Source: Myxococcales bacterium (GTDB lineage: Bacteria > Myxococcota_A > Polyangia > Polyangiales > DASUME01). From it: DNA of 64,000 bases. Below, piece by piece: positions 6,173-35,813 of the stretch. The DNA lies in assembly GCA_047601445.1 (NCBI GenBank), contig JASGJH010000001.1:3776001-3840000 (forward strand). The letters are read 5' to 3'. Made by a program: the position numbers and the translations under genes. The notes under the pieces were generated by a model, which saw only the letters and a list, made by a program, of their open reading frames with translations, was not told the DNA's origin and did no database searches. Positions within the stretch are counted from its first letter, which is position 1. Every line of letters starts with the position of its first letter.

Positions 6173-11668
<5,496 letters not shown>

Positions 11669-20401: not shown

Positions 20402-21490
20402 ATGAAGCGTTGGTTACTGCTCGGATTGCTGTGCTCGTGCGTGTGGATCGGTGGAATTGTCGAGGTTCAGGCCCAGTCGAACGCAGACGCGGGGGTGGCG
20501 CCAGTGGAGGCCCCCTCCGCTCCCCCTCCCCAGGAAGCCGTGACCCACCGCTCCCATGCCGTGGCCGGCGGTCAGAATCGAGTCGACGTCGGTTTTCACG
20601 TGAATGCCCTGCGCGAGGTGGACGCCCATGCTCAAACCTTCCGGGCCGACCTGTTCTTCTGGCTAATCTACCACCGGCGTACGCCCGGGCTGGTCGACGA
20701 GGAGCTCGAGGAAATCCGCTTCACCAACGGAGACGTGGAGTCGATGGAGCTGGAGGAGCGCAAGGCCCTAGGCGACGACAACTACGTGCTGTATCGGGTC
20801 CGCGCGCAGTTTCATTTTCAGGCCAACTTCCGTCGCTATCCCTTCGATGTGCAGGAGCTGCCCATCGAGGTGCAACACGGCTATCTGCGCTCCGACCAGC
20901 TGGCGATTCACGTGGACCACCCCTCGTACGCCCGTTCGACCGGGCCCCAACACCTCCGCGCCCTGGGCGAGGGCGTCGGCCTGGCGGACATGGTGGTCAG
21001 AGAAGTGCGCCATGAAGAGCTCCAGCGCACCTACCACACCGACTTCGGCGACAGCACGGACCCCGTGGGGTCCACCACGGTCTCGAGCTATCGCATGGTC
21101 ATCGTAGCGGCGCGCGAGGTCTGGCCTTTCTTGATCAAGATCGTGATCCCGCTACTGATCATCCAGATGCTCGCCTATCTGGTGTTCTTCGTGGCGGCCG
21201 ACCGCATCGACGTGGCCGTGGGGCTCACCGTCACGTCGCTCTTGGCCAGCATCGCCTTCCAAATCGCGCTCGCCGACAGCTTGCCCGACATCGGCTACCT
21301 CACGACGGCCGATCGCATCTTCCACCTGTCTTACTTCCTGATCATGGTGGCGATGGGGCAGATGGTCTACGCGTACAACCTATTCACCGCGAACGAGGTG
21401 GAGCGCGCACGCAAGCTCGACATGGCGGGCCGCATCCTGTACCCGCTGGTGTTCTTCGTGGGCGTGGCCCTGATCTGCTGGCGCTTGTGA
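20402..21490 (+). CDS. Prokaryotic pentameric ligand-gated ion channel (GLIC/ELIC-like)
   Basis: Signal peptide; beta-rich ectodomain with Pro-loop RYPFDVQ; M1 KIVIPLLII; M2 DVAVGLTVTSLLASIAFQ; M2-M3 LPDIGYLT; four TM helices. Confidence 0.85.
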   Translation: MKRWLLLGLLCSCVWIGGIVEVQAQSNADAGVAPVEAPSAPPPQEAVTHRSHAVAGGQNRVDVGFHVNALREVDAHAQTFRADLFFWLIYHRRTPGLVDEELEEIRFTNGDVESMELEERKALGDDNYVLYRVRAQFHFQANFRRYPFDVQELPIEVQHGYLRSDQLAIHVDHPSYARSTGPQHLRALGEGVGLADMVVREVRHEELQRTYHTDFGDSTDPVGSTTVSSYRMVIVAAREVWPFLIKIVIPLLIIQMLAYLVFFVAADRIDVAVGLTVTSLLASIAFQIALADSLPDIGYLTTADRIFHLSYFLIMVAMGQMVYAYNLFTANEVERARKLDMAGRILYPLVFFVGVALICWRL

Positions 21491-21494
21491 GGGA

Positions 21495-21745
21495 GCCCCT
21501 GGTAGCGGAGCGCGGACCGCTTCCCTCTGGCTGGCCGAGAGTCGCGCCGTGAGGCAAGCGCCACGCCGTGGGGACGGTCATGGGATTGCTTCTAGTCTTG
21601 GTGCGCAAGGCGCGCAGGAAGCGCGCAGGCTCAGTCTCCGTCGGATCGTTCGCTGATAGGGTCCACCGGTCTCGCTTCGCTTCCAGGCGAGGCGCGCCAA
21701 GACTCGGCGCCAGAGGGAAGCCGTCCGCGCTCCGCTACCAGGGGC
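21495..21745 (+). repeat. Structured repeat element copy 1 (MITE/REP-like or ncRNA), 37-bp terminal inverted repeats
   Basis: 21495-21531 vs 21709-21745 are reverse complements with 1 mismatch; core shared with copy 2. Confidence 0.85.
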
Positions 21746-21759
21746 CTTGTGTGTTCTCT

Positions 21760-22065
21760 CTAAGGATGCTCGAGCGTTCTCATGTGCTCACTCTGGATCA
21801 CTCGAGTGATTCCACGGTCGCCCGAGTTTGCTCAAGTGTCCTCAGGGGTTCACCGTAGTTCGCTCGAGTGTTCTCGCGTGGACGCCCAGGTTCATTTCGC
21901 TGGGCTCATCTGGACCAGTGGGTCCACGCGGGCTCACCTGGACCAGAGAGTCCATTCGAGCGCACTCGCCAAGTGTCCACACGAGCGCACTCGAGCCAAG
22001 AGATCACTGGAGTAGACGCGAGCCAAGAGATCACGCGAGCCAACTCGAGCCCAAATGTGGACACA
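21760..22065. repeat. Degenerate tandem array of CTCGAG-like motifs
   Basis: RCTC(G/A)AGYG units at 21768, 21800, 21830, 21862; doubled GGGCTCAYCTGGACCAG, CGAGCGCACTCG and CGAGCCAAGAGATCAC. Confidence 0.6.
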
Positions 22066-22068
22066 GTG

Positions 22069-22316
22069 GCCTCTGGCAGGAGCGGGGCGGCGGGTCGTCT
22101 GGCGCCGAGTCTTGGCGCGCCCCGACTGGAAGCGAAGCGAGACCGGTGGCCCCTGTCAGCGGCCGATACGACGGAGACTGAGCCTGCGCGCTTCCTGCGC
22201 GCCTTGCGCACCACGACTGGAAGCGACCCCATGACCGTCCCCACCGCGCGCAAGCACGCCCGATGGCGCGACTCTCGGCCAGCCAGACGACCCGCCGCCC
22301 CGCTCCTGCCAGAGGC
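22069..22316 (-). repeat. Structured repeat element copy 2 (inverted relative to copy 1), 35-bp perfect terminal inverted repeats
   Basis: 22069-22103 vs 22282-22316 are perfect reverse complements; reverse complement aligns with copy 1. Confidence 0.85.
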
Positions 22317-22337
22317 TACGGGGGGCCTCGAACGGGC

Positions 22338-23705
22338 TCAGTAGACGTACGGAATGATGCGGTAGGGCACGCGCTCGCTGTAGCGCTTCCAGTCCGCACC
22401 GTACTTCTCGGCGCAGTGGTGGTCGTCGCGGCGTTCGCGGTCGATCAGGAGCGGGGCGAAGTACAGGAAGTAGAAGTACGGCACGATGTGCGAGAAGCCG
22501 CAGGCGAGGCACCAGGCGAGCGCCATCATCAGGTCGCCCAGGTAGTTGCAGTGCCGCGCCAGGCCCCACCAGCCCGCCGCGAGCAGGCGGGTACCACGCT
22601 GGGTCTGGATGAACTCGGGCTCGCGACCCCAGATCTTGGCGCCAGGCACAGTCTTGAAGCGGTGCTTCTGTAGGTTCGCCGAGCGGAAAATGTAGTAGCC
22701 AGCGAAGTTGAGCAGCACGAGGCCGACCACTGCGAGCCCCGACAAGGCGGGCGCGCCGTACACGAGATACTGAGCTTGAAGTGAGAAGTTGAAGGGCATC
22801 CAGACCACGAAGCCGAACGCGAGCATGAAGCCGTAGTTCTCGTAGTTGATGTCCCAGGTGGAAAGCATGGCTTCCTCGAACCAGAAGAAGTCGACCACGT
22901 AGGCGAGCTGAAACAGGCAGACCACGATCATGGCCAGCGAGAGTGCGCCTTCGCGCTCGTACTCCGCGTGGGCCATCAGGAACGTGAGCACGATCCAGGT
23001 GGTCATGCCGATCTTCGACTCGAAGAACATCTTGAGGTCGAGCTTGCCGATGCGCGGATTCAGGGACGTGCCCATGAAGTAGTCGTAGGCGACCTTGTCT
23101 AGGCTCGCGGCCTGGCTGGCCTCGAGCGCCAGGCTGCCGTCCGGCTGCATCACCACGTGCGCGTTCGCCTCGGGCTCCTCCGGCGGGCGATAGCGCTTGC
23201 CGTAGATGTAGAGAAACGCGCTGAGCAAGTAGGCAAACAGAATGGAGGTCACGAGCAGCGGGCCGAGCTGGTCGAGCACCGCGCTGCCGCGCAGCACGCC
23301 CGTGGCGAGCAGCCCGGCGAGGAGTGCCAGCGTGACGAGCAACGAGAAGAAGCCGTTCAGGCGATACACGAGGCGTCGACCGTCGCGCTGGGGCAAGCCC
23401 TTGTAGGCGCGTCCGGGCAGGTAGAGATTGAGGGCCAGCTGGAAGGTCACCCAGGCCACCACCCAAAACACGGAAGCCGCGGTGGGTAGGGGAAACTCGG
23501 CCAAGAGGCGCGCGCTCGGTAGCACCAGGGCGCCCCCGTGCATGTGCACGCAGATCCAGAGGTACACACTCAAGATCGGCAGGAGCACCATCATGGCCGT
23601 GGCGCCGATGGGCCCACCGAAAGCGAGCCGCTCTTCCCCTGGCTTGGCTTCGCTCGCGACCGCGCTGGCGGCGGCCGTACTCGAACCCTCACGAACTTCG
23701 TTCAT
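22338..23705 (-). CDS. ERG4/ERG24-family sterol reductase (Delta14-sterol reductase / DHCR7-like)
   Basis: FGGPIGA, YDYFMGTSLNPRIGKLDLKMFFE, STWDINYENYGFMLAFG, FRSANLQKHRF, GWWGLARHCNYLGD, RDDHHCAEKYG, VPYRIIPYVY. Confidence 0.93.
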   Translation of the reverse strand: MNEVREGSSTAAASAVASEAKPGEERLAFGGPIGATAMMVLLPILSVYLWICVHMHGGALVLPSARLLAEFPLPTAASVFWVVAWVTFQLALNLYLPGRAYKGLPQRDGRRLVYRLNGFFSLLVTLALLAGLLATGVLRGSAVLDQLGPLLVTSILFAYLLSAFLYIYGKRYRPPEEPEANAHVVMQPDGSLALEASQAASLDKVAYDYFMGTSLNPRIGKLDLKMFFESKIGMTTWIVLTFLMAHAEYEREGALSLAMIVVCLFQLAYVVDFFWFEEAMLSTWDINYENYGFMLAFGFVVWMPFNFSLQAQYLVYGAPALSGLAVVGLVLLNFAGYYIFRSANLQKHRFKTVPGAKIWGREPEFIQTQRGTRLLAAGWWGLARHCNYLGDLMMALAWCLACGFSHIVPYFYFLYFAPLLIDRERRDDHHCAEKYGADWKRYSERVPYRIIPYVY

Positions 23706-31635: not shown

Positions 31636-33723
31636 ATGAAGCGGCATGCGTGGTTGGGCCTGGGGCTGGGTCTGTGTGTTGGTTTGACGGCTTGCGGCGG
31701 ATCGGACAGCGACGAAGCGGCGCCCGAGAGCGACGCGGGCGTCCCCGACTATACGAACGCCATCAAGCAGCTGCGTGACGACATCAACGGCCTGGGCCAG
31801 ATGTCAGGCGGGCTGGACGGCCGCCTCGACGTGCTCGAGACCCCGAAGACCCCTGGGTCCTGCAGCAAGGGAGAGCTCTGCATCCCGGACGGCGTCAATC
31901 TCGTCGAGGCCGGTCTGCAGCCCCTGGTCGCCGCGCTCTGCGCCTACGAGACCGGCTGCTGCAACCCGGGCGAGCTGAACTACCTGTACGGCCCGGCAGT
32001 GACCTCCGCCGCGGACTGCGAGGCAACCTTCAAGGACCTGCTCAACAACGGCCAGATCAACGGCCCGTACATCTTCGAGGGCAGCCTCCAGCTCCTCGCG
32101 CGAGCGGCCCATGCCTTGAACGACACGGACGTGCTCGTCGAGATCGACCCCGCCGGCGTCGACGCCTGCACCGCGCGCATCAAGGCCGAGAAGTGCGCCA
32201 AGGATGCGGACGACGAGACCGTCTGTACCCCTGGGAAGCTCTACGAGTACGACGACAGCTGCTCATTGCGCAAGATGCTCAAGGGCCTGGAGCGCGAGGG
32301 CGACCCCTGCGAGCCGGGCGAGATCAACGAGTGTGGCGCCGGTCTGGTCTGCCGTGACACGTCCTCCGATGAGACCAGCGGTCAGTCCGGCATCTGCAGC
32401 GCCAAGGCCAGCGCGGGCGATCGCTGCGTGAACAACGACGACTGCGACGATCTCTTCTGCGAGAGCGCCAGCGGTACGTGCAAGGCGCGCGCGAAGGAGG
32501 GCGAGGCATGCAGCTACATCGACCCCACGTTCACGAAGATCGGCGCCTACAGCTACCTGGGTCAGCTCCAGGGCGATAGTTTCACCAACCTCGACTGCGA
32601 GCAGGGCCTCACCTGCAACCCGAGCACCAACAAGTGCGTGAAGGGTTACTGTGCCGAGGGTTCCTTCTGCGACAACAACTCGCAGTGTCCGACTGGCTTG
32701 GTCTGCAGCCGACTGGCGAACGATGCGCTGAACCAGTGGGTTCAGAACGATTTCGTGGGCCTGTGCGCGCCAGGTCGCGCCCAGGATGCCACCTGCGTCG
32801 AGCGCGGCATCATCAACGGTCGCCATGACAACGACTGCGCGAGCAACCAGTGCGCCGATCCGGACGCGAACGATCAGACCACCTGCCAGCCCGCGCTGGT
32901 GGCCGACGGTCAAGCGTGCGACGACGGTGCCGACTGCCTGAGCGGTCACTGCGGCAGCGCCAACACCTGCGCGCCCAAGTGCGACCTCTACTGCGACTCT
33001 GCCGACTGTCTCAAGTGCGCCGCCGGTAGCTTCTGCAACTACGGAGGCAACGGCTACTGGTGCGAGCCCCTGATCGCCACCTCCAGCCCTTGCAACTCCT
33101 ACGACCAACTCAGCTGCGCGAGCGGCTTCTGCAGCGATGATACCGACCTGTGCACTGCCAAGAGCACCAACGGCACCTGCCCCTCGGGTCTCCCCGAACA
33201 GTGCCCGGTCGGTCAGGGCTGCATGCAGGGCAACTGTGTGGCCGGCGCCGCGGTCGGTCAGCCGTGCACCGTGCCCGAGAGCTACAGCTCTGGATGCGTG
33301 GCCGGCGCGTACTGCTGGTGGACCACCCCCGAGCACACTGCCGGCGTCTGCGCGGAGCTCGGCCTCGATCGAGACTCCCTGCGCAAGCTCCCCAATGGCG
33401 CGGAGTGCGAGGGCGCCAACGAATGGTGCGCGAGCGGCGCCTGCATGTACGATGGGACCACCTACGTCTGCCGAGACGCCAGCGAAGGCACCACCTGCAA
33501 TCCGACGAGGGACGCTGGCTGCGGAGATGAGGGGGTATGCGTCCCCGGCGAGACCCCGGTCACCGGCACGTGCAAGAAGGTCCGCAAGACCGGTGAACCC
33601 TGTGATCCCAAGCTCGAGGGCCTCGAGTGCGCCTCGGGCGACTGCGTCGTCGAGCACGAGAGCTTCGTGTGCGCCCCCGGTGGCGAGGGCGAGATCTTCT
33701 GTCACGAGAGCTTCGATCGTTGA
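31636..33723 (+). CDS. Cys-rich repeat lipoprotein (paralog 1)
   Basis: Lipobox LTAC, short coiled coil, dozens of disulfide-type repeats. Confidence 0.85.
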   Translation: MKRHAWLGLGLGLCVGLTACGGSDSDEAAPESDAGVPDYTNAIKQLRDDINGLGQMSGGLDGRLDVLETPKTPGSCSKGELCIPDGVNLVEAGLQPLVAALCAYETGCCNPGELNYLYGPAVTSAADCEATFKDLLNNGQINGPYIFEGSLQLLARAAHALNDTDVLVEIDPAGVDACTARIKAEKCAKDADDETVCTPGKLYEYDDSCSLRKMLKGLEREGDPCEPGEINECGAGLVCRDTSSDETSGQSGICSAKASAGDRCVNNDDCDDLFCESASGTCKARAKEGEACSYIDPTFTKIGAYSYLGQLQGDSFTNLDCEQGLTCNPSTNKCVKGYCAEGSFCDNNSQCPTGLVCSRLANDALNQWVQNDFVGLCAPGRAQDATCVERGIINGRHDNDCASNQCADPDANDQTTCQPALVADGQACDDGADCLSGHCGSANTCAPKCDLYCDSADCLKCAAGSFCNYGGNGYWCEPLIATSSPCNSYDQLSCASGFCSDDTDLCTAKSTNGTCPSGLPEQCPVGQGCMQGNCVAGAAVGQPCTVPESYSSGCVAGAYCWWTTPEHTAGVCAELGLDRDSLRKLPNGAECEGANEWCASGACMYDGTTYVCRDASEGTTCNPTRDAGCGDEGVCVPGETPVTGTCKKVRKTGEPCDPKLEGLECASGDCVVEHESFVCAPGGEGEIFCHESFDR

Positions 33724-33782
33724 AATGGTTCAGGCGGGCCGAGCAGGCTCTGTACGCATCGAACTGGAAAGGGACCTACGAC

Positions 33783-35813
33783 ATGAAGGGTCAAGGTTGG
33801 TTGGCAGCGGGGCTCGGCCTGTCGCTCGCGATCGGTGGCTGTAGCGGCTCGGACGACGACGAACAGTCGGTCGACGTGAGCGCCGACGCGGGAGTCCAGG
33901 ACTTCAGCGACGACATCAAGGGCCTGCGCGATCAGATCGACGGACTCACCCCGCAGTTCGCAGCGCTCGATGGGCGGCTCGACGCGCTCGAGACGCCGCC
34001 CCCGGCGCACTCATGCAGTACGGGCGAGCTCTGTATTCCGGACGGCATCGCCCTGGCGAGCTCGGCCTTCCAGCCGATCATCACGGCCGTGTGCAAGAAG
34101 ATGACCGACTGCTGCGAGGTGCGAGAGCTCTTCTGGCTCTACGGCAAGGCGATCCAGAACGAGGCCGACTGCGAGGCCACGCTCAAGGACCTGATCAACA
34201 ACGGTCAAGCCAACTACGACTACTACTACCAGGGTGCGCTCGGCAACTACGTGCAGATGGTGGTGGAGGCCGGCCACGCGCTCAACGACACCGACGTGCT
34301 GGTCGAAGTGAACACCGCGAGCGTCACGGCCTGCGCCGCCGAGATCGACGCCGAGGTGTGCTACCGCGATCAGACCTATCCCGAGCGCTGCTCCTACGAG
34401 AGCGACACGAGCCCCTGCGATCTCTCGCAGTTGTTCACGGGCAAGGAGCGCGCAGGTGACACCTGCAACTTCGGCTCCGCCATCCAGGAGTGCGGCGCCG
34501 GTTTGGTGTGTCGCGACGCGAAGGGAACCTCTCCGAACCGGACGCCGCCCCCGCAGTCCGGCCTGTGCGCTGCCAAGGCCGCCGCGGGACAACGCTGCAT
34601 TTCGGACGAGGACTGCGACGACCTCTACTGCGATCATGGGACGGGCACCTGCAAGGTGGCGGCCAAGGAGGGCGAGCCTTGCACCTTCGTGGATCCCACC
34701 TTCCTGGATATCGACATCATCGACGGGGAAGTGCTCGTCGTGCCCCCCACGATCATCGACTGCGAGCAGGGACTCGCTTGCAACCCGGTCACGAACACCT
34801 GCGCGAAGGACCACTGCGCGGCGGGCTCGTGGTGCAGAGGCAACTACGATTGCCCCGCAGGCCATGTGTGCACGAACAGCGGCAGCCAAGTCCTGGCCGA
34901 CGCGTCGGAGAGCCAGGGCTATCTGGGTGTGTGCACGCCTGGGCTGGCCGACGGCGCGACCTGCGCAGTGGACACCTTCAACCGGAACGACTGCGCCAAC
35001 TTCGCCTGCAGCGATCCGGACGACGACGGCACCAACACCTGCCAACCTGCGCCCGTGGCTTGCGACTACGGCTGCTATGGCAGCGATTGCCGGACCTGTG
35101 CCGCCGGTTCCTACTGCCACAACCAGAGCAGCACCTGCGAGCCGCTCATCGAGAATGGCCTGGGCTGCTTCGATGACACCGCTTGCAAGAGCGGCTTCTG
35201 CAACGAGGGAACCTGCGAACCGCGCGTAGCCGCGGGCGGATCCTGCCCCACGGGCTCGAACCAGCAGTGCCCGGACGGCCAGTACTGCAACGATGGCACC
35301 TGTGCCCCGGCGGTGGGCCTGGGCGAGCTGTGCGACCTTCCAGGCAGCGACTCCAACTGCTCGCAAGGCCTGCGCTGTCTCGACGTCGATGGTCCGGACG
35401 GCGCGGGCAGCGTCTATCGCTGCTACACGTTCCACAAGAACCGCAACGAGTATGCAAACCTGCCGGATGGCGTGTACTGCGCGGATGTGGACTACGACCA
35501 CTGGTGCACGAGCGGCTTCTGCCGCAAGGACGGCACCAACTACGCCTGCGCCGCCACGCTCGGCGCCGGCGCTGAGTGCGTCCCCACCAACCAGGACACC
35601 TATCGCTGCTCCAGCGACCTCGGCTGCATCGTGAACCAGGCCAGTACCCTGGGTGGCTACTGCGGTCAGTGGAAGCTGCCCGGCGAGGTCTGCGACCCGG
35701 ACCTCAACGAGTGCCGGGGCAATGAGTACTACTGCCAGCTCCACGGGGATAACTGGCTGTGTAGCCCGTACAGCGGCAGCGAAGAGTTCTGCATTCCCAT
35801 AGGCGGAGGCTGA
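33783..35813 (+). CDS. Cys-rich repeat lipoprotein (paralog 2)
   Basis: Lipobox-like IGGC; shares LDGRLDxLETP, GELCIPDG, ADCEATxKDLxNNGQ, HALNDTDVLVE, DCEQGLxCNP with paralog 1. Confidence 0.85.
   Translation: MKGQGWLAAGLGLSLAIGGCSGSDDDEQSVDVSADAGVQDFSDDIKGLRDQIDGLTPQFAALDGRLDALETPPPAHSCSTGELCIPDGIALASSAFQPIITAVCKKMTDCCEVRELFWLYGKAIQNEADCEATLKDLINNGQANYDYYYQGALGNYVQMVVEAGHALNDTDVLVEVNTASVTACAAEIDAEVCYRDQTYPERCSYESDTSPCDLSQLFTGKERAGDTCNFGSAIQECGAGLVCRDAKGTSPNRTPPPQSGLCAAKAAAGQRCISDEDCDDLYCDHGTGTCKVAAKEGEPCTFVDPTFLDIDIIDGEVLVVPPTIIDCEQGLACNPVTNTCAKDHCAAGSWCRGNYDCPAGHVCTNSGSQVLADASESQGYLGVCTPGLADGATCAVDTFNRNDCANFACSDPDDDGTNTCQPAPVACDYGCYGSDCRTCAAGSYCHNQSSTCEPLIENGLGCFDDTACKSGFCNEGTCEPRVAAGGSCPTGSNQQCPDGQYCNDGTCAPAVGLGELCDLPGSDSNCSQGLRCLDVDGPDGAGSVYRCYTFHKNRNEYANLPDGVYCADVDYDHWCTSGFCRKDGTNYACAATLGAGAECVPTNQDTYRCSSDLGCIVNQASTLGGYCGQWKLPGEVCDPDLNECRGNEYYCQLHGDNWLCSPYSGSEEFCIPIGGG

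Follow-up and report, generated by a model that had tools for sequence, protein, structure and literature searches.

A repeat family with variable complementary arms around a conserved core in one myxobacterial genus

Two inverted elements located between convergent genes in a 64,000-nucleotide stretch of a myxobacterial genome (hereafter the window) are members of a family of repeats, each about 250 bases in length, that is restricted to one myxobacterial genus. The family is apparently undescribed, as no earlier record was found in the open main-text literature. Our preferred reading, which we hold with moderate confidence, is that these repeats are non-autonomous mobile DNA confined to the genus, resembling a giant REPIN or TIR dimer and folded as a single strand. 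A first-pass annotation of the window had proposed an undescribed structured RNA or single-stranded DNA (ssDNA) element. Part of that proposal stands, namely the undescribed status of the family, the covariation of its closing stem, the lack of an Rfam match and its probable nature as a non-autonomous mobile element, but the reading as an RNA has been weakened.

The window locus and the repeat family

The two window copies are indeed inverted relative to each other at the positions originally given for them (Table 1), and their cores, compared over 170 nt, are 88% alike. A recount agrees with the 11 substitutions reported over 147 nt from position 21568, and the terminal stems likewise proved to be as described, in that the 37-nt arms of copy 1 are 97% complementary and the 35-nt arms of copy 2 are perfectly so. 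The closing stem of copy 1 is extended, with bulges, by the core ends at 21534-21548 and 21691-21708. The distances between stop codons and elements were also measured correctly. The channel gene yielded a match to Cys-loop ligand-gated channels in the PDB (E 3e-13) and no match in a Pfam search. Between 21300 and 22500, a scan for sigma-70 promoters returned no sites and a scan for terminator-like structures returned two weak sites versus 0.4 expected by chance. The spacer between the two copies exhibits partial homology with the spacers of three other doublets (e4e5, e6e7 and f1f2). Elsewhere in the window, eight tandem 276-nt repeats reside inside a coding region at 8945-11400, which we take from reading the sequence to encode a poly-HAMP sensor, and two paralogous cysteine-rich genes lie about 2.15 kb apart at 31800-35500.

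Table 1. The window doublet and its host genes, in window coordinates
Feature	Position	Strand	Remarks
Cys-loop (pentameric) ligand-gated ion channel homologue	20402..21490	+	Host gene; copy 1 begins 4 nt past its stop
Copy 1 (e1, alpha subfamily), gene-proximal arm, type A	21495..21531	+	One C.C mismatch
Copy 1 core, 177 nt	21532..21708	+	
Inner helix of the first-pass annotation, 21568-21578 with 21665-21675	21568..21675	+	Inner half alone kept across copies
Copy 1 small internal hairpin	21610..21626	+	Sequence and loop vary by subfamily
Copy 1 tail-proximal arm	21709..21745	+	
Spacer, 323 nt	21746..22068	none	Consists of two degenerate tails, rich in CTCGAG/GTGTTCTC, that face each other
Copy 2 (e2) tail-proximal arm, type B	22069..22103	-	GTGG adjoins outside
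Copy 2 core, 178 nt	22104..22281	-	
Copy 2 gene-proximal arm, type B	22282..22316	-	GTAG adjoins outside (22316-22319, minus strand)
ERG4/ERG24 sterol reductase	22338..23705	-	Host gene; copy 2 begins 21 nt past its stop

The genome under study is a single contig of 9.5 Mb with a GC content of 66%, taken as myxobacterial on the strength of its genes and of a related copy in a contig labelled Myxococcales (L052). BLAST and profile searches of this genome identified nine full copies of the subfamily that includes the window pair (alpha), and a census of long inverted repeats, which found 129 in total, revealed two further subfamilies of the same plan, with nine (beta) and six (gamma) full copies. 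The genome-wide count, a check proposed in the first-pass annotation, stands at 24 full copies in three subfamilies, to which a joint profile adds three half copies. Each unit consists of an arm, a core of 161-182 nt, a complementary arm (35-45 bp or more) and a degenerate tail rich in CTCGAG or GTGTTCTC. A GTRG tag adjoins an arm in 5 of the 24 copies, two of which carry it at both ends, and seven copies have one to three extra gene-proximal arms in tandem.

Sixteen of the full copies are arranged tail to tail as eight close doublets, in which 181-340 nt of spacer separates the two units. A gene lies between f3 and f15, the partners of e3 and f11 are truncated, and the remaining four copies are single. 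The truncated copies seen have lost the tail end but still carry the gene-proximal arm. Full copies are confined to 3.80-6.49 Mb, around the replication origin (skew minimum at 5.775 Mb, dnaA at 5.773 Mb), and the clustering of the 14 merged loci is significant (p 6e-4). When 3175 intergenic regions are ranked by a score trained on the tails, 14 of the 17 highest are known regions, a ranking that is circular for those 14; the score also singles out a separate repeat family. When the arms were searched across the genome, they matched their own family alone.

Several other repeats were encountered in this genome. A 'delta' family of about 270 nt has covarying arms of 26-41 bp, inner hairpins, doublets and the same tails as the family described here, is spread round the chromosome (9222791-9223456, 9269712, 168602, 8307526, 2519639, 4756928, 263489, 4708878, 6006048 and other loci) and shows no profile match to it. 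Insertion-sequence genes, presumably IS3-like as judged by reading them, reside among delta copies at 1.653-1.657 Mb. An 'epsilon' repeat of about 160 nt has a conserved core within variable, perfect arms of 26-28 bp (810213, 1945699 and 3468805), and also occurs in the tail of a copy in the congener G005 (contig C646, locus L173). Repeats with arms starting GGGGTGTCCC or GGGGACGGTT were found at 5029741, 2541597, 1901939, 5888569, 6657062 and 7630429. Because the GGGGACGGTT motif also lies beside RAYT-like genes in the congeners G008 and G009 (L118 and L120), these repeats may be TIRYT-type elements. Finally, arrays of short units of the GCCATC and GTCAAC types form long inverted repeats at 6311000, 6326645, 6696470, 7709349 and 6053214.

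Arms, cores and the possible folding strand

The arms of different copies are much less alike than the cores. Within subfamilies, median identity is 0.55-0.66 for arms versus 0.84-0.86 for cores (0.57-0.61 for cores of different subfamilies), and within each copy the two arms pair almost perfectly. The covariation that the first-pass annotation saw in the closing stem extends to the family: in a set of ten alpha-type sequences, double changes were seen at 30 of the 42 outer pairs, a count that is inflated by kinship among the copies and that 0 of 500 shuffles reached, and slid controls fall to 36-48% paired. Two inner helices examined in the same ten sequences have no double changes.

Relatives provide a test of the stem, because the search models comprised the core plus at most about 10 nt of arm and were therefore nearly blind to arm sequence. 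One copy in G008 (contig C642) carries a new 42-nt arm pair that is 90% complementary, five further full copies in relatives have arms of at least 32-35 nt (86-100%), and each of three weak matches in G005 (E 6e-5 to 2.5e-4) has 35-nt arms (91-97%). These previously unseen arms support the closing stem independently of the kinship-inflated counts.

The core presents a different picture. Whole copies fold far better than 200 shuffles (z -9.65 for copy 1 and -8.03 for copy 2), and this is because of the arms; in all 13 trimmed cores tested, of 24 in the alignment, folding was no better than that of 30 shuffles each on either strand (z from -1.9 to +1.5). Core covariation in an alignment of 33 sequences is weak, with no run of covarying pairs except at the foot of the small hairpin and in a single 4-bp helix, the latter with a compensatory swap between subfamilies. 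The inner helix proposed earlier stands in part: its inner five pairs show 92.6% pairing and include two double changes, whereas two of the outer pairs are disrupted, one in 5 and the other in 6 of 11 copies, and the score of the whole helix was matched by 2 of 500 shuffles. The accompanying view, in which structure rather than sequence is under selection, is not supported for the core, which is conserved mainly in sequence. No Rfam covariance model came near its gathering score for alpha, beta or gamma copies or for a G008 copy.

Other identities for the unit were tried and rejected. A coding remnant does not fit because copies 1 and 2 also differ at codon positions other than the third and because indels in some copies shift the frame. 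A GGA loop of the CsrA type was dismissed because the loop differs between subfamilies, and a tRNA-like minihelix because relaxed ARAGORN calls, made in 10 of 24 copies, are inconsistent or unrelated. Likeness to a XerC half-site was discarded because the dif-like site of this genome, at 1.214 Mb, differs.

Possible traces of exchange are visible in both parts of the unit. At the e6/e7 locus, a stray arm ahead of e6 matches the far arm of e7 at 36 of 38 positions, and the gene-proximal arm of e7 is a chimera, being of the e6 type at positions 9-22 (13/14) and of the stray type over its last 12 positions (12/12). This chimeric arm is consistent with arm exchange and partial recopying, without proving them. 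Cores are mosaic in all three subfamilies, and 115 of 171 core site pairs in alpha are incompatible, a figure in which recurrent mutation is not separated out. Template switching can perfect inverted repeats and make multi-base compensatory changes, according to the available portions of two papers (PMC5941160, PMC8794818). The best reading is that the arms are kept matched at the DNA level.

The G-U pairs of the inner helix had been taken to favour the sense strand of the upstream gene. That argument is not supported, given that this strand is rich in G and T (G 1679, C 1318, T 893, A 498) and that cores fold like shuffles on both strands. Although the sense strand is better folded as RNA in 24 of 24 copies, its shuffles also fold better, and the advantage is therefore due to base composition.

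RNA helices under selection are usually rich in G-U pairs. Strictly aligned arms from 34 copies, read on the sense strand, contain 1051 Watson-Crick pairs, 24 A.C, 4 G.T and 21 other mismatches; the corresponding counts are 772, 16, 2 and 16 in this genome, 198, 7, 1 and 1 in seven copies from relatives, and 81, 1, 1 and 4 in G005. The excess of A.C over G.T has a binomial p of 1.8e-4 if mismatches are independent; they lie mostly at different sites, and f15 alone contributes four. A looser alignment with flanks gave 50 versus 19 in the same direction. As A.C on the sense strand corresponds to G.T on the antisense strand, these wobble mismatches favour the antisense strand, although gamma copies and relatives retain a sense-strand G.T at the stem top (33-sequence alignment). 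The A.C excess could also stem from strand-biased mutation or repair rather than from selection for an antisense hairpin, and because either process could give the same pattern, the case against a selected sense RNA helix is firmer than the proof of an antisense hairpin. In attC sites, the folded strand is marked by G:T mispairs, as stated in the accessible part of PMC5027507.

Placement, distribution and the search for an enzyme

The first-pass annotation placed both window copies at gene 3' ends in the sense orientation. For the family in this genome this is true of 17 of 26 copies, whereas the other nine face the start of a divergent gene. Fifteen of the 26 begin no more than 170 nt after a sense stop codon, and another two overlap a gene end missed by the codon-score gene caller made for this analysis. 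The e8/e9 doublet sits between divergent genes. Convergent regions account for 9 of 15 classifiable locations versus 1231 of 6562 gene pairs (19%; p 5e-4), with two regions unclassified. Gene labels such as DnaK-like, TetR-like (for a gene in G007), MYXO-CTERM and aspartokinase were read off translations and are presumptive.

Neither a target-site duplication nor a nearby transposase had been noticed at the window locus, and both observations extend to the family. With outer doublet boundaries placed by eye, no consistent abutting direct repeat was found at any of the eight doublets, and 32 neighbouring proteins that were scanned belong to unrelated families, none of them a transposase.

Orthologous sites were located through genes that, in a relative, lie ahead of a copy or face one. 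Nine queries gave seven usable sites, as one had no match and one match of 40% identity was set aside. Four of the seven are empty in this genome, including one where just 9 bp separate the gene from the next. The other three are occupied in both genomes, two by the family described here and one by another repeat family. At argJ, the copy is of the beta type here and gamma-like in G004, and the ERG24 region holds alpha copies here and a gamma-like copy plus an assembly gap in G004. Sites occupied in two genomes are also compatible with long retention.

Beta spacers are alike among the doublets f1f2, f5f6 and f8f9, and arm types are paired in the same way at different, unrelated sites, so the doublet has been copied as one piece. 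Some copies enclose genes. The copies f7 and f8, which agree at 306 of 314 nt, lie as direct repeats on either side of a lone gene for a PycTM-like effector (5683842-5684480, E 5.5e-21), which a split kinase gene adjoins; no cyclase was found among the neighbours scanned. In an array at 5.033-5.038 Mb, gamma copies alternate with three genes whose GC3 of 0.68-0.70 lies below the 5th percentile of the genome (0.76). Two paralogous, low-GC3 genes of secreted type at 5033372-5035949 have their last codons inside gamma arms. The combination of empty orthologous sites, common spacers and gene-enclosing arrays points to mobility.

Copies were found in four of nine congeners (six matches in G004, five in G007, two in G008 and three in G005), whose genomes are fragmented and 72-99% complete. 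No match at E 0.001 was obtained in the fragmented assemblies of G001, G002, G003, G006 and G009. Most of the copies viewed in relatives also follow a sense stop codon. In one G004 doublet (contig C56), no transposase-like frame was recognized by eye in the 1.2-kb interior, which includes an assembly gap. Outside the genus, 0 of 146 genomes gave a match with model R1 and 0 of 150 with model R2, in searches that scored 17 candidates per genome and that missed the G005 copies, such that distant subfamilies could escape them. An exact-pattern scan for alpha in 400 genomes of the order returned one congener and one chance match in a coding region. Among 32 matches to the same pattern in genome contigs, one is real, in the contig L052 with its Myxococcales label, which we do not add to the tally of genomes, and the single match in metagenomes is due to chance. 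Exact-pattern scans of viral contigs yielded 0, 0 and 31 matches, none real, and plasmids and phages gave no match.

A mobilizing enzyme for the family was not found in this genome. Its sole Y1 transposase is encoded by an IS200-like gene that lies far from any copy. Searches for IS110 recombinases and TnpB returned no matches while their controls worked, whereas a search for Y2 (IS91) transposases was silent for this genome and for its controls alike and is uninformative. No RAYT gene was found in this genome. RAYT-like genes in G008 and G009 have inverted repeats of their own (22-29 bp) and no copy nearby, and because the relatives are fragmented, a linked RAYT gene could be unassembled. Integron integrases are absent from this genome and score above the cut-off in 2 of 10 genomes (G007 and G001), in neither case near a copy. 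Two reverse transcriptases (RTs) in this genome match no retron model above its cut-off and have no copy nearby. One RT, of 515 aa (L022:1216-2763, about 4.494 Mb), falls below every NCBIfam cut-off and gives its best matches to group II RTs and Drt3a, and at about 1.213-1.214 Mb (L023) a 5'-truncated RT of a group II intron adjoins the dif-like site.

Likeness to known elements and the origin of the family

Functionally the family is nearest to REPINs and TIR dimers, with a strand bias reminiscent of attC, but it fails a defining feature of each of the REPIN, TIR, attC, MITE and retron systems. REPINs and BIMEs come close, as described in the available text of PMC3337134, because they too are extragenic, multi-copy and non-autonomous, have complementary ends and form higher-order inverted arrangements. 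REPIN spacers vary in sequence yet remain hairpins, and the present family shares this retention of pairing by variable sequence, along with the absence of a target duplication. However, its arms vary while its inside is conserved, which is the reverse of REPINs, and its units measure about 250 nt in 24 copies, in contrast to about 90 nt in hundreds of copies (same text). In addition, no short REP palindrome is common to all copies and no RAYT gene lies beside any. TIR/TIRYT elements, as far as described in the portion of PMC3733652 consulted, similarly have long terminal inverted repeats arranged as dimers, with frequent heterodimers and spacers of variable sequence, but the GGGGWSAS motif is present in only 2 of our 24 copies and no TIRYT gene resides between arms. 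The words Sorangium, Myxococc and Haliangium are absent from the main text of that paper.

We consider it unlikely that the units are sense-strand structured RNAs in 3' untranslated regions (UTRs), acting as stabilizers, attenuators or processed small RNAs and selected for RNA structure. The 17 of 26 copies that follow a sense stop here, as do most of those viewed in relatives, would suit such a role, as would the presence of copies in the argJ and ERG24 regions of two species. E. coli REPs act as 3' UTR stabilizers and terminators, according to the part of a preprint that was available (bioRxiv 10.64898/2026.03.23.713779), and the two double changes in the inner half of the proposed helix, the 4-bp core-helix swap and the stem-top G.T on the sense strand of gamma copies and relatives also agree with an RNA. 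Against it, cores fold like shuffles, sense-strand arms hold 4 G.T versus 24 A.C in 1100 positions, 9 of 26 copies (including e8/e9) lack an upstream sense gene and four of seven orthologous sites are empty. Quite unlikely, in our estimation, is an ssDNA recombination site resembling attC, in which the antisense strand folds and a recombinase stacks gene cassettes behind host genes. The available text of PMC5027507 describes structure kept over sequence, placement after stop codons and strand-marking wobbles, which parallel the antisense wobble bias of our arms, the stop codons that adjoin copies and two cassette-like arrays, namely the f7/f8 direct repeats around the PycTM-like gene and the gamma array with its three low-GC3 genes. 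Yet the family lacks R boxes (RYYYAAC in 0 of 24 copies; six GTTRRRY matches without a partner) and a linked IntI, as integrases above the cut-off occur only in G007 and G001, unlinked to copies. Its 161-182 nt conserved core is not a simple hairpin, its doublets are tail to tail, its upstream genes are mostly ordinary host genes, and homologous recombination between repeats accounts for both arrays with no special enzyme.

A retro-element product, either SINE-like or similar to a retron msr-msd region with a terminal stem that mimics a1/a2 and a repeat tail added by RT, is very unlikely. A variable closing stem around a conserved core, a polar repeat tail and a myxobacterial host recall retrons as described in the consulted portion of PMC6868368, and msDNA-like repeats in Nannocystis are known to us from a title among its references; the likeness of the closing stem to a1/a2 is a resemblance only. 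The core contains no long hairpin of the msd type, there is no retron RT (neither of the two RTs matches a retron model above its cut-off or has a copy nearby), the many copies are dispersed in doublets, and truncated copies keep the gene-proximal arm, the reverse of the outcome expected from tail priming. Least probable is that the units are classical MITEs, with a DDE transposase binding the arms and moving them. Chunjie, Nezha and ERIC, as covered in the available text of PMC3184786, resemble the family in size, terminal inverted repeats, stable predicted folds, extragenic placement and empty versus filled sites. However, arm sequence is not conserved between copies, no consistent target duplication exists at any of the eight doublets, no cognate IS was found and arms match their own family alone in the genome.

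Under our preferred reading of a mobile DNA repeat, the unit would fold as ssDNA, most likely from the strand antisense to the upstream gene, into its long closing stem. An enzyme supplied in trans would then read the conserved stem top and core and move the unit or the doublet without target duplication. Arms could drift because only pairing would be needed, template switching or conversion would recopy one arm from the other, and recombination would mix cores between copies. A HUH (Y1) transposase is a first guess for the mover, by analogy only, and such a mover is absent or unrecognized in this genome. Insertions would survive best between convergent genes, and any effects on mRNA 3' ends would be a by-product.

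A more far-reaching possibility, which we advance only tentatively and regard as doubtful, is that the family represents a new class of structure-specific ssDNA element. On the antisense strand, its long, sequence-free stem would display the conserved core of 170 nt to an enzyme outside all described transposase families. Such an element would regenerate one arm from the other as it moves, travel as doublets and offer a landing site at which foreign genes, among them a defence effector, are stacked behind host genes close to the replication origin. If this were true, an unknown enzyme acting on single-stranded DNA and a route of gene capture outside integrons would be implied.

If the preferred reading is correct, REPIN-like elements of reversed design, with variable arms and a conserved inside, exist in a lineage for which we found no such elements in the literature. 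The family also offers many natural replicates for the question of how long inverted repeats stay perfect amid sequence turnover. For RNA discovery, it carries a caution: a closing stem can come to covary strongly through processes at the DNA level, and a G/T-rich strand can fake a strand preference.
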